DNA of 64,000 nucleotides from Sulfuricurvum sp. (GCA_050178755.1 JBFXFU010000014.1:661-64660); one strand, 5' to 3'; shown: positions 49,353-53,716, counted from the stretch's first letter. Notes: generated by a model from the letters alone, not told the origin. Translations and numbers: made by a program.

Positions 49353-49428
49353 GGCCAATTAGCTCAGTCGGTAGAGCAAATGACTGAAAATCATTGTGTC
49401 CTTGGTTCGATTCCGAGATTGGCCACCA
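49353..49428 (+). tRNA. tRNA-Phe (GAA)
   Basis: GGCCAAT/ATTGGCC acceptor stem, D arm GCTC..GAGC, anticodon loop CTGAAAA, TTCGATT T-loop, encoded CCA; TATAAT at 49326-49331. Confidence 0.97.
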
Positions 49429-49643
49429 CCTTATAAAAAATCACTCAACACTAAATTATTTCATTCCGCTTTCTATACCGTTTGTATCGTAATCAGTATA
49501 ATGTACCTATTTATGTACTTCATCGATATATTTGGATGGGTTCTAATACTGTTTAAAATCGCAGTCAGATAGCAATCTGCCGCGAGTCCTACAACTCTCC
49601 AGCAGTCTGAATACAATAGATAAACCTCTTGCCCTCTACGTCC

Positions 49644-51775
49644 TTAAAAACGTTTGGTGAAACTTAAAAAGAAGTTTCTGCCTTCCCGCAGGATCCCTCC
49701 GGCCGTATTATAATAGTAGCTGGGTTGACGGATATCGGCATCCAACAGATTTTTAACACTCAAACGCATTTCAGTCGAAGGAGAGAATCTGTACGTAACG
49801 GTTTCATCGACAATATGCTGAGGAGCTACGGTCGTATCCGTCCCATCGTCCGTGATCCAGCTCAATTTTGACTGCGTGGTTCGGGAATAATACTGCCAGG
49901 TGGTTCCAAAAGAGAGGCTGTCAGTAGGTTTATATATGTACATCCCTTTGAGCATCACTTTTGAAATATCGGGCATCGATTGATTGAGCGATACGGAACC
50001 CTCTTCCGGAGGAGTCGTATAATCAGTGTTGATGTAGGATGCGTTTAGATAAAGGTCATGCGCCGATTCCGTCCGAAAGTTGTATTCGAATTCGATCCCC
50101 TTGCTCTTTCGATCGGGATAATTCTGATATCCCGGGATCGTCGAATAATACTCTTCAAGATCGATGACGTTTTTAAGGTCCGAGTAGAAAAAATCAACGC
50201 TGAATTTATGATTGAAGTTCGGCGTATACACGGCAATGGCTTCGTATGTGTCGGTCTCTTCGGGTTTGATCGACGCGACGCCCGCACGGTAATTGATATG
50301 ACCGTTTGCGTAGGCTTCGGTAAACGTCGGAGCTCGAAATGCCGATCCGTACAGAAGCTTCAGAACGGTCGTCTCGTTTGCCCGGTATACGAGCGCCGCC
50401 CGCTTGCTCCACTGAGCTCCGATGTCCGAATAATGGTCCAGTCGTGTTCCCAAAATCAGATCCACATCGGCCCCCAGAGAGATCAGATCCTGAACGTAGC
50501 CGTATCCGATTGTCCGGCTCTGTCCCGACTGGATGAAACTGGTCGTCGGATTAGCCCAATAGGCAGGTTCCCTGGCTTCACGAAATCGAAACGAAGGATA
50601 TCCCGGACTCGCAAGAATAGTTGAGAGGTTGCTGCTGATGGCGTTTTCAACGCTGTTATAATAATTGTCTTTTGGCAAACGCACGTCCCGTCCCCCGATT
50701 CCGGCAACAATATCATTGGAACGCCATTTGGGAAAGCTGAGTACCGTTTCGGCTTCGACGTTTCGTTCCTTCATTTTTTCAGTGAAATAAAACCCCTCTT
50801 GCATATCGACTCCGACAACGGCGAACCGTCTCGCTACCGTCGACATGTCCGAGATATTTGCCCCTTCCTCCAATATACGTTCCGAAACGTTTATCTTGGA
50901 CTCTACACCGATATCGTTTAATCGGGTTTTGTACGAAATCTGCGAAAAAAGATAGCTGTTGATATGTTCTTTGGGAGAAACCGGTATGGGATCGAGGTCC
51001 TCTTCAAACCCGTAAAAATTTCCGTATACACTCCGTTTGTAGCGGGCCAACAGTTCCAACCCCTCTTTGCGGGCTTTGAATCCTACCGATAGGTCACGCA
51101 TCGATTCATCCGTTTCCTCGTTTCGTCCTTCCACCGGTAACGATTTGGAATTTCGTGCCAGATAGCCGTCCGAAAACAGTTTCCATCCTCCGGCCGTCGT
51201 GTGGACATTCATCCCGGCATTCAATAAACCGTAACTACCGGTCCCCAGAAAGACCGGTTTTCCTCTTTTGCATTTCCGAGACGGGTAATCACGTTGACCG
51301 TGCCGTAAAAAGCACCGGACCCCTGCATCGTCGAATTCGGTCCGCGCAACACTTCGATCCTCTCGACGAGCTGCAAGGGAAAATCCATATAAAAATCGCT
51401 CGATCCCGACACTTCGTTATTGATCGCTACACCATCAATCAAAATTTTGATTTTATCGGAGAGGTACGCGTTTGGATTTTTCAATCCTCTTACCGTCGGC
51501 ATGACATATCCCATCGGACTAAGCTGCATTTGAAAACCGGGAAGCATCCCCAATGCCTCCCCTACATTCTGAATCCCCGCATCCAGATAGGTCTGCGCAT
51601 CGATAATACTGACGGCTGAAGGAAGATAATCGACATTGAGAGACTTTTTGGTAGCCAACGCACTGGCATTTTCCAATATTGCCTCGAAATCTCCGATATC
51701 TGTGGTGTTCGCCCCATACAACGATCCATATACCAATAAAATCAGCATAGACCCGAATCCCATACGTTTTGCCAT
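49644..51775 (-). pseudogene. TonB-dependent outer-membrane receptor, split by a 1-nt frameshift at about 51250-51265
   Basis: The N-terminal ORF has plug motifs (LPSAVSII, VRGL, ERIEVLRGPNS..GSGAFYGTVNVIT). The C-terminal ORF is a beta-barrel (NLLD..., ends GRNFFLSFTKRF). Adding one base fuses them into about 710 aa. Confidence 0.85.
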
Positions 51776-51890
51776 TGCTAAAGCATTTCCCCCTGCTTCT
51801 AGATATAACGGTCAATTATACATTTTTTTATTATTTCTCCGATAATATGACAATCTGTTCCGTTGCAACTTCTAGAAAAGGGTACCGTTA

Positions 51891-52448
51891 GTGACAAAAA
51901 AGATAATTCGGTATGGATTGATTTTTGTCTTTTTCGGATATTCGGCCTGCGCCGAATCGTACGATGATTCCGTTTTGGAAATCGTCTCAAAAATTCTCCC
52001 TCGCCTTGTCCTGATGAGTTCTCAAAAAAATACCATAGACAATCGAATCGGTATCTGCGTAGCCCATGAACCCTCCGATACGGAGGAAGCGGATACGCTC
52101 ATTCGGAAAATCCGCACCAATTATCCCACCGGAATCAAAGGGTATCCTCTGGTACTCAGCAGTTATGAGTATAAAAACGTCGCCGCATGCCAGAAAAATC
52201 AAATTGCTTTCTTGTTTGATTCCAATGGAGAAACCATCAAAAAAGCGGTACGTATCTTGCATAAAAACGGAGTACTCTCGATGTCCTACGATCCGATCTA
52301 TCTGGAAAACGGCGTCGAATCTTCTTTGTTTATCGGCAGAAAAGTTACTCCGTATATCCACTTCGACGTACTTCAGCAAAACGGCATTGAAATCGACAAT
52401 GCCCTTTTGCAGATTTCAAAAATCTATTCGCAGCGAGACGGCAAATGA
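51891..52448 (+). CDS. YfiR/HmsC-like (DUF4154) periplasmic protein
   Basis: Signal peptide, two Cys, C-terminal PYIHFDVLQQNGIEIDNALLQISKI similar to the YfiR family; 4-nt overlap with the cyclase gene. Confidence 0.7.
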   Translation: MTKKIIRYGLIFVFFGYSACAESYDDSVLEIVSKILPRLVLMSSQKNTIDNRIGICVAHEPSDTEEADTLIRKIRTNYPTGIKGYPLVLSSYEYKNVAACQKNQIAFLFDSNGETIKKAVRILHKNGVLSMSYDPIYLENGVESSLFIGRKVTPYIHFDVLQQNGIEIDNALLQISKIYSQRDGK

Positions 52449-53716
52449 TTCGTAACATCAGTATTGAACTCAAAATGATTCTCGGTGCCATCTTGTTTGT
52501 ACTGCTGTTAAGCGGGTTTGAACGCTACGAATTTACCCAAAATATCCTCTCTCAGTTTGCAGAGTCGAAAAAAGCCAAAAATACTCTTCTGGTCAATACG
52601 ATCTCACCGATCGTGGGGCTCAATATTTCGCTTGGACTTGACGATGCGAATCACGAATATCTGGATCAGATTGTTCGTCAAAATCATGATTTAACCCATT
52701 TCCTCCTCACCGATGCCGACAATCGGGTATTATATCGCTATACCAAAAATGTTCCTCCCATATCCCATACGGCCAAAGACGGAGTACATTCTATCCATCG
52801 CCCTATACTCGATCCCGTTACCCAAGAACGTATCGGCGAAGTAACGTTGCGGTTTGACGACCATGAATACCGGCAGCTTCTGGAAAAAAACCATGAAACG
52901 GGTTTGCGAATCTACCTGATTACGTTTTTTGCGTTACTGTTGTTCGTCGCGTATATCCGGCAGGAGTTTCGTTTTCTCAAACAACTGAGCCGTCACGTAC
53001 ATAACTATGATCCGCGCATCAATAATTTTTCCCTGCAATCGACCGAACGTAAAGACGAAGTGGGAATTATTCATAATGCCATCGTATCGATGGTTGATCG
53101 GATACGCAGCCATACGGTACTCTTGGATGATATGAACCGTTCTTTAGCCCAAAAAGTAGAGGAAAGGACCAAAGAGCTTCAAGACGCGAACGTCCGTTTA
53201 CTAGAGCTCTCCACGACCGATCCTCTGACCCTTTTGCCGAACCGGAGATATCTGGAAGATCATTTGCATAATATCTGGGAACTGGCCAAACGTCAGAACG
53301 TCAGCGTGTCGGTCATTATGTGTGATATTGACCACTTTAAACGGATCAACGATACCTACGGACATATCATTGGCGATTTCGTTCTCAAAGACATCGCGCT
53401 GTTGCTAAAAACAGTACTCAAACGCAATACCGATTTTATCGCCCGTTTCGGGGGTGAAGAGTTCATTGTCATTCTTTATGACACTGGTGTGGACGATGCC
53501 AAAAACGTTTGTCAATCGATGCAGGCTGCCATCAGCAGTAAAAAACGGTTTGAATATCAAGGGATTTCTCTGGAAACGGTCACTTTGAGTTTCGGTATTG
53601 CATCGGTAATTCCTCATACCGACAGCCAGTACTACGATCTCATAAACCTTGCCGATATGGCATTGTATCGGGCAAAACAAGAAGGCCGGAGCCGTTTTGT
53701 CTCTATTGGAAATTAA
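52445..53716 (+). CDS. Membrane diguanylate cyclase (periplasmic domain, HAMP, GGDEF; YfiN-like)
   Basis: Two TM segments, HAMP-like DEVGIIHNAI, DPLTLLPNRR, DIDHFKRINDTYGH, I-site RNTD, RFGGEEF. Confidence 0.93.
   Translation: MIRNISIELKMILGAILFVLLLSGFERYEFTQNILSQFAESKKAKNTLLVNTISPIVGLNISLGLDDANHEYLDQIVRQNHDLTHFLLTDADNRVLYRYTKNVPPISHTAKDGVHSIHRPILDPVTQERIGEVTLRFDDHEYRQLLEKNHETGLRIYLITFFALLLFVAYIRQEFRFLKQLSRHVHNYDPRINNFSLQSTERKDEVGIIHNAIVSMVDRIRSHTVLLDDMNRSLAQKVEERTKELQDANVRLLELSTTDPLTLLPNRRYLEDHLHNIWELAKRQNVSVSVIMCDIDHFKRINDTYGHIIGDFVLKDIALLLKTVLKRNTDFIARFGGEEFIVILYDTGVDDAKNVCQSMQAAISSKKRFEYQGISLETVTLSFGIASVIPHTDSQYYDLINLADMALYRAKQEGRSRFVSIGN

Follow-up and report, generated by a model that had tools for sequence, protein, structure and literature searches.

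A receptor, adaptor and sensor module in Sulfuricurvum sp.

A 64,000-nt stretch of the genome of Sulfuricurvum sp., referred to here as the window, contains at positions 49644-53716 a minus-strand TonB-dependent receptor gene, a gene coding for a YfiR-like periplasmic protein and a gene coding for a membrane-bound GGDEF diguanylate cyclase, confirming the presence and coordinates of the three elements given in a preliminary description of this DNA. The module is real and represents a divergent variant of an architecture that is catalogued but unstudied, and its receptor gene is naturally broken in this genome. The locus is interpreted here, with moderate confidence, as belonging to a widespread type of three-part envelope sensor, of which it forms a divergent variant within the Campylobacterales; the receptor would take the part of YfiB, and the module is probably uncoupled in the window. 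YfiBNR is the textbook example of a periplasmic repressor titrated by an outer-membrane protein to switch the synthesis of cyclic di-GMP (c-di-GMP). If a ligand-gated TonB-type receptor replaces YfiB, this would link a particular extracellular molecule directly to kinase cascades or to decisions on biofilm formation and motility. Such a link would be common, as about one fifth of the sampled Campylobacterales genomes encode a YfiR-like homologue, four modules are present in the genome analysed and curated models derive from other phyla. No paper on a link between such receptors and YfiR was found in the full-text literature, where YfiR and TonB occur together only in incidental co-mentions, and papers on the CHASE8 domain as well as a 2022 review of c-di-GMP sensing are silent on this link.

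Linkage of the receptor, YfiR-like and sensor genes

The neighbourhoods of the YfiR-like genes were surveyed across 301 genomes of the order, with 60 loci being fetched and the neighbouring genes classified by hidden Markov models seeded from Pfam-verified proteins. YfiR-like homologues are encoded in 65 of the 301 genomes, distributed over 20 of the 89 genera. A receptor is encoded within 400 bp of 57 of the 68 YfiR-like genes sampled, which bears out the co-occurrence expected from the preliminary description, and most of the exceptions are genes at the end of a contig or genes separated from the receptor by one further gene. Both a receptor and a homologous membrane sensor are located beside 50 of the 68 genes, the sensors comprising 34 cyclases, 15 kinases and one unclassified protein. 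The gene order receptor, YfiR-like, cyclase is observed in 28 cases and the order receptor, YfiR-like, kinase in 15, while the six divergent arrangements make up the subfamily of the window. This divergent unit, consisting of an intact gene for a receptor of 704-722 aa, a spacer of approximately 100-135 bp, the YfiR-like gene and a gene for a cyclase of 419-427 aa, recurs in five other genomes or contigs. The flanking genes there differ from those of the window, with a MacB efflux system and a DTW protein in four metagenome or metagenome-assembled genome (MAG) loci. The variant is thus not a rare peculiarity of one locus, given that the architecture is widespread and that the NCBIfam models NF053590, NF053591 and NF053592 exist.

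All four YfiR-like genes of the Sulfuricurvum genome itself, located on contigs C14, C28, C38 and C3, adjoin a receptor and a homologous sensor gene, in a genome that encodes only about ten receptors among approximately 4,900 open reading frames (ORFs) of at least 100 aa. The pairwise distances of the YfiR-like proteins and of the receptors are correlated (Spearman 0.76), and the nearest neighbours coincide for 22 of the 40 modules against 1.4 expected by permutation, both figures being inflated by shared ancestry. The receptor, YfiR-like and sensor genes are inherited together.

The three further modules of this genome (C28:1565-6724, C38:1013-6543 and C3:118142-123797) all contain intact receptors; the output protein is an 888-aa kinase in the first, a 650-aa cyclase in the second and, in the third, a 1031-aa CHASE8 hybrid kinase, after which an RR-HD-GYP protein is encoded. 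About 70 ORFs in the 2.6-Mb genome match the GGDEF profile, representing an unusually large c-di-GMP network for its size. A variant gene order, with the YfiR-like gene followed by a 63-aa ORF, the receptor and the kinase, is found at two loci (L007 and L008). In its sequence the 63-aa ORF (L007:6573-6764) is similar to the N-terminal end of the module sensors (...GLERYE..ILEQF...LINTLVPIVSLNLSL...), and it probably represents a remnant left by a sensor gene that has been displaced.

The YfiR-like adaptor

The 185-aa adaptor has, as judged from its predicted structure, the YfiR fold. The 14 best Protein Data Bank (PDB) matches of its AlphaFold2 model (pLDDT 90.3) are all YfiR crystal structures (TM-score by target 0.76-0.82, E ~3e-8), and the next-ranked matches are periplasmic substrate-binding proteins, including 3lkv, 3lft, 6k1x and 6hnj. 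YfiR itself likewise resembles the half-domains of binding proteins (PMC4655355). The YfiR identity given in the preliminary description is thus upheld by the predicted fold and by the relatives of the protein, but not by its own sequence, which scores 21.4 bits against DUF4154 and falls below the Pfam cut-off of 24.9. None of the NCBIfam models, including NF053591, is matched by the window protein, no similarity to E. coli YfiR was detected by BLASTP (E=10), and the profile of the YfiR-like family retrieved no YfiR among the PDB sequences. DUF4154 is matched by 32 of the 41 YfiR-like relatives at E<=0.001, and NF053591 by four of them, weakly. As the profile and BLASTP searches were empty, the kinship with YfiR is seen only in the fold and in the Pfam matches of the relatives. 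The protein is preceded by a signal peptide (...GYSACA/ESYDD), and the mature part contains one conserved pair of cysteines, Cys56 and Cys100. Its nearest homologues are encoded in metagenome bins of Sulfuricurvum and other Campylobacterota; a related-loci search of the genome contigs with the single protein as query retrieved nothing.

A module-specific receptor N-terminus and its predicted contact

The module receptors carry an amphipathic helix followed by the motif A-T-x-T-K-x-N-x-D-Y-x-P directly before the plug, in the position where the TonB box normally sits. Across 44 module receptors A40 is conserved in 38, N46 in 43 and P51 in 42, along with hydrophobic residues at positions 29, 33 and 39. 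The receptor of the window carries ...ILENASALATKK... where a canonical TonB box would be expected. A regular expression for the motif matches module receptors only, and none of the six non-module receptors in the same genome contains the motif, four of them having a TonB box of the LDxIxVxA type. The receptor of the C3 module forms an exception among the module receptors, having a canonical-looking box. Four TonB_C proteins are encoded in the genome.

Complex prediction with an intact orthologous pair, comprising receptor residues 21-709 and YfiR-like residues 22-184 of a Sulfuricurvum MAG, gave a score of 0.69, while the best of three controls scored 0.00, in agreement with the contact that had been envisaged between the two proteins. 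The mark of 0.69 is reached by 58 of 80 solved complexes and by two of 110 mismatched pairs, these being rough counts for which own alignments were used. On the side of the receptor the predicted interface consists of residues 26-50, which contain the motif, of portions of the plug and of the periplasmic turns of the barrel, where the contacting residues extend as far as the C-terminal one and mark the periplasmic rim by their regular spacing. On the side of the YfiR-like protein it involves the N-terminal helix and residues 59-71, 133-139 and 147-152, which include or flank nearly invariant positions. The prediction supports a direct docking of the YfiR-like protein on the periplasmic face of the receptor via the N-terminal motif. 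The motif and the predicted interface together provide a concrete target for mutation.

The receptor gene is disrupted by a frameshift

The receptor had been described as a single gene, which is incorrect: it is divided into two ORFs of 184 and 526 aa, which lie in different frames and meet in a break at the plug/barrel junction. The 184-aa ORF, which runs out of frame at its end (...ENRSFWGPVVTVY, then the stop codon), covers the plug domain together with the signal peptide and the conserved N-terminal motif, while no signal peptide is encoded by the barrel ORF, which occupies the -1 frame relative to the plug. The orthologous receptors are intact and in frame, with lengths of 704-709 aa, and read KKENQLFxGxGSY at the junction, where the plug frame of the window gives KEENR/SFW and its barrel frame KPVFLGTGSY. 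Three-frame translation against these orthologues shows that exactly one base is missing near 51250-51260. The identical split, into 184 and 522 aa, is present in two Logan assemblies from other runs. One of these (L012) derives from a different strain, which is 98.7% identical over 6.6 kb, and its receptor gene differs from that of the window by 20 substitutions, without any indel and with an identical junction. Contigs from three metagenome studies, one of landfill and two of wastewater, also span the shift site without an indel. Assembly or sequencing error as the source of the split is ruled out by the identical junction in the 1.3%-divergent strain and by the lack of indels in the contigs of the three studies. 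The 1-nt deletion is genuine, and the split receptor is read here as a recent inactivation, rather than an artefact or a case of recoding.

Both plug and barrel are encoded in the window, but in two frames and not in one exported polypeptide. As the barrel cannot be exported, the outer-membrane input of the module is most likely lost here, and the ligand-operated switch is probably not working in this genome. The broken receptor offers a ready-made comparison with its intact relatives. When read through the break, it scores 87.5 bits against NF053590, below the cut-off of 645, and this model matches all 44 module receptors no better than generic receptor models do. The receptor family matches are generic and the neighbouring genes are not conserved across loci, so that neither points to a particular ligand.

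The barrel regions of the two strains differ by 16 synonymous and four non-synonymous substitutions. A 3-kb block (50623-53688), comprising the 5' half of the receptor gene, the YfiR-like gene and the cyclase gene, differs by a single base between the same two strains, while its flanks differ by 1-2%, which suggests that the frameshifted allele was recently transferred or underwent a sweep. As the lesion lies inside this near-identical block, the 16:4 pattern in the barrel is probably older than the lesion. Ongoing selection on the barrel, as a reading of the 16:4 ratio, was rejected as a sign of function, the lesion being part of a block that has probably spread recently. The shift site is located within the sequence ACCGGT-N10-ACCGGT (51237-51258), in which two copies of a self-complementary hexamer fold into a 9-bp hairpin.

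The membrane diguanylate cyclase

The 423-aa cyclase comprises a first transmembrane (TM) helix (residues ~10-26), a periplasmic alpha/beta domain (~27-154), a second TM helix (~155-172), HAMP-like helices and a GGDEF domain (257-417). Both its catalytic and I-site motifs are intact, as earlier described, with GGEEF at residues 336-340 (53450-53464) and RNTD, of the form RxxD, five residues upstream at 327-330 (53423-53434). The former designation as a HAMP-GGDEF cyclase stands for the GGDEF domain, but a HAMP domain was not detected by Pfam in the window protein, and HAMP-like helices are seen only in the model and in the relatives. CHASE8 was likewise not detected by Pfam in the window cyclase and is found in one of the 54 module sensors. 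The N-terminal region of the NCBIfam DgcN model matches 11 of the 54, the window protein not being among them, and NF053592 matches 14, with no match on the N-terminus of the window sensor. Homology between the sensor subfamily of the window and the remaining module sensors is shown by hhalign (99.8%, E 4e-30). The AlphaFold2 model of the first 230 residues has a pLDDT of 91.7, and E. coli DgcN and P. aeruginosa TpbB rank second to fourth, thus among the best four, in a fold search of Swiss-Prot, in which many other sensors of a TM-PAS-like-HAMP layout obtain comparable scores.

Comparison with known systems

The locus resembles the YfiBNR system (TpbB/DgcN-YfiR-YfiB) of P. aeruginosa and E. 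coli and the Yersinia HmsCDE system in that a gene for a YfiR-fold protein lies immediately upstream of, and is coupled to, a gene for a TM-sensor-TM-HAMP-GGDEF cyclase with GGEEF and I-site motifs, and in that an outer-membrane partner is proposed to bind YfiR. It differs from both in lacking a gene for the OmpA/Pal-like lipoprotein YfiB, the proposed partner being a divergently encoded TonB-dependent receptor of the 22-strand type. Unlike in YfiBNR, pairwise similarity to E. coli YfiR is nil and CHASE8 is undetected, and seemingly only one of the two cysteine pairs of YfiR is kept. As the defining YfiB lipoprotein is absent, the locus is not a member of YfiBNR, although by analogy it would work like it. 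Six OmpA-domain ORFs were retrieved from the genome with E. coli YfiB as query (three lipoproteins, one porin-like and two MotB-like), none of which is located near any YfiR-like gene. None of the YfiR-like genes has a linked yfiB, but the OmpA-domain lipoproteins encoded elsewhere in the genome leave room for a distant partner.

The three-part, side-by-side architecture is shared with the NCBIfam trio of NF053590 (TOL_0244 receptor), NF053591 (TOL_0243 YfiR-like) and NF053592 (YfiR-like-associated sensor histidine kinase), models that provide names only and no mechanism. The C3 locus of the same genome fits this trio, with 195.3 bits against a cut-off of 194 for the kinase and 100.7 against 125 for the YfiR-like protein. 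The window proteins, by contrast, fall below all three cut-offs, with the receptor far short of its own and the other two unmatched; the output is a cyclase instead of a kinase and the receptor gene is divergent instead of first in the operon. There is also a resemblance to FecA-FecR-FecI, where an N-terminal periplasmic segment of a receptor signals to the periplasm-exposed partner of an inner-membrane regulator, as is proposed here. Unlike in receptors of the FecA type, no STN domain was detected by Pfam in the plug ORF, only about 30 residues precede the plug, and no anti-sigma or ECF sigma factor genes occur nearby in the window or the related loci, while the proposed partner is soluble and of the YfiR fold, with c-di-GMP or a two-component kinase as the output. 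In the absence of an STN domain and of a sigma/anti-sigma pair, the locus is not a FecA-type transducer.

Proposed mechanism and alternative explanations

The envisaged sensor would consist of an outer-membrane receptor of the TonB-dependent type, an adaptor of the YfiR fold in the periplasm and, in the inner membrane, a sensor whose input region (TM-periplasmic-TM-HAMP) is YfiN-like, the output at this locus being a GGDEF cyclase. In other receptors, the TonB-box regions are exposed or hidden according to ligand occupancy. Ligand occupancy may similarly expose or hide the N-terminal segment of the module receptors, which would then capture or release the YfiR-like protein and so set the activity of the cyclase. 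In YfiBNR, YfiR contacts YfiB and YfiN through one conserved surface and is sequestered by YfiB at the outer membrane (PMC4655355). The replacement of YfiB by the receptor, as put forward in the preliminary description, is plausible by analogy: the linkage, the docking prediction and the lack of a linked yfiB speak for it, but the receptor frame is broken in the window. The deletion at the plug/barrel junction would most likely cut this module off from outer-membrane input and, if the analogy with YfiB holds, the cyclase would remain under the control of the YfiR-like protein and hence repressed.

A more specific version, which is possible but rather doubtful, holds that the TonB box of the module receptors has been exchanged for a docking helix that binds the YfiR-fold adaptor, and that the plug-only fragment in the window acts as a constitutive decoy. 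If true, this would add to FecA/FecR and YfiB/YfiR a third type of signalling at the cell surface, in which an extracellular ligand is coupled to c-di-GMP synthesis or to two-component kinases, possibly in a TonB-free or TonB-competing manner. The secreted plug fragment, which keeps the docking motif, would then provide a natural locked state of the switch.

Several observations weigh against the interpretation of the locus as a three-part sensor with the receptor in the role of YfiB. The subfamily falls below all curated cut-offs (DUF4154 21.4/24.9, NF053590 87.5/645, no match to NF053591 or NF053592 and no CHASE8), and in its receptor both plug and barrel are kept complete, as would be the case in a transporter. 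The fold match of the sensor to DgcN/TpbB is no better than that to PdeK, BaeS or WalK-type sensors, the complex score expresses model confidence and is not a measurement, and the correlation of distances is raised by common descent. Finally, one genome (G206) encodes a close orthologue pair without an immediately adjacent receptor, a motif-bearing receptor being located approximately 5.6 kb away. At this locus (L044; G206:C9:39110-53628) which holds the closest orthologue pair at species level that lacks an adjacent receptor, the distant motif-bearing receptor is divergent from a paralogous sensor kinase, which points to a rearranged module in G206.

The receptor could alternatively be an ordinary TonB-driven importer whose substrate binds the YfiR-like protein, half of a type-I binding-protein fold, in the periplasm and thereby modulates the cyclase, with no receptor/YfiR-like contact being needed. 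The full plug and barrel, the four TonB_C proteins of the genome and the matches of the YfiR-like model to substrate-binding proteins, as published for YfiR (PMC4655355), are in keeping with such transport-coupled sensing. This is nonetheless considered unlikely, as the canonical TonB box appears to be replaced by a helix and motif exclusive to the module receptors, the predicted complex places the YfiR-like protein exactly on this motif while all controls score 0.00, and no ABC importer is conserved beside the module. That an unrelated receptor merely happens to adjoin a YfiR/YfiN-type pair is barely conceivable: the receptor gene is on the opposite strand and the subfamily fails the curated cut-offs, but the neighbourhood counts (57 of 68 in the order and four of four in the genome) refute chance adjacency, and the divergent unit is kept despite changed flanks.

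The remaining alternatives concern the broken receptor. It may be a decaying pseudogene, with the YfiR-like/cyclase pair acting alone, for example as a periplasmic sensor of redox or envelope stress, as proposed for the cysteines of YfiR, and outer-membrane input being irrelevant. In favour of this, the frameshift is real and common to strains in three studies, no signal peptide precedes the barrel, the YfiR-like and cyclase genes both have intact frames with translational coupling between them, the Cys56/Cys100 pair is conserved and the G206 orthologue pair has no adjacent receptor. Set against this, no other member of the subfamily has a broken receptor, the lesion consists of one base only and no further stops have accumulated, the strain differences in the barrel are predominantly synonymous and the near-identical 3-kb block spans the lesion. 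This reading is considered quite improbable. The single lesion, the 16:4 differences and the near-identical block point instead to a recent inactivation of a module that was functional until lately. A bypass of the frameshift by -1 ribosomal or transcriptional slippage, with some receptor still being made and the lesion serving as a tuning device, would require a shift in just the direction observed; the 9-bp hairpin begins right at the site and the identical sequence is kept in three data sets. It is nevertheless very improbable, as all orthologues are in frame, so that there is no conserved recoding site. No canonical X-XXY-YYZ slippery heptamer is present at the shift site, where only A4 runs occur, and the local hairpin is unexceptional (z = -1.85; nine of 200 shuffles fold equally well). 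On these two grounds programmed frameshifting was rejected.

Organisation and surroundings of the locus

The features of the locus are listed in Table 1. The divergent gap of 115 bp between the receptor and YfiR-like genes, the coupling of the YfiR-like and cyclase genes, which overlap by ATGA, and the lack of a YfiB/OmpA lipoprotein gene at the locus (Pfam scan), all noted in the preliminary description, were confirmed. Domain scans place mraY and murD upstream of the locus and genes for a GNAT acetyltransferase, the next gene after the cyclase, and a ParA-like ATPase downstream. The divergent spacer yielded consensus matches only, namely a site resembling a promoter at 51817-51846 (+), from a promoter scan, and an ATGA-A block of the -10 type, which is kept across the six orthologous spacers aligned.

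Table 1. Features of the receptor/YfiR-like/cyclase locus in the Sulfuricurvum sp. window
Feature	Coordinates	Strand	Basis
Receptor 3' ORF, beta-barrel, 526 aa	49644-51224	-	Pfam TonB_dep_Rec_b-barrel 123.3 bits; translation
Receptor 5' ORF, plug, 184 aa	51221-51775	-	Pfam Plug 73.7 bits; translation; alignment to intact orthologues
Frameshift site, 1-nt deletion in ...GAAAACCGGTCTTTC...	51250-51260	-	Three-frame translation against orthologues
Conserved N-terminal segment, ~residues 23-53, ...DFEAILENASALATKKSLNVDYLP...	51617-51709	-	Alignment of 44 receptors; regular expression; complex prediction
Divergent intergenic region, 115 bp	51776-51890	.	Promoter scan and alignment of six orthologous spacers; consensus matches only
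YfiR-like periplasmic protein, 185 aa	51891-52448	+	AlphaFold2 fold; DUF4154 below threshold; relatives
Membrane diguanylate cyclase, 423 aa	52445-53716	+	Pfam GGDEF 160.7 bits; NCBIfam DgcN/YfiN alignment, residues 46-411; AlphaFold2

In the second strain (L012:1-2490, corresponding to 49406-49430 of the window), murD and the receptor gene are separated by a 2.4-kb insertion that is missing from the window and contains an rve/HTH_38 transposase gene and a 235-aa ORF.

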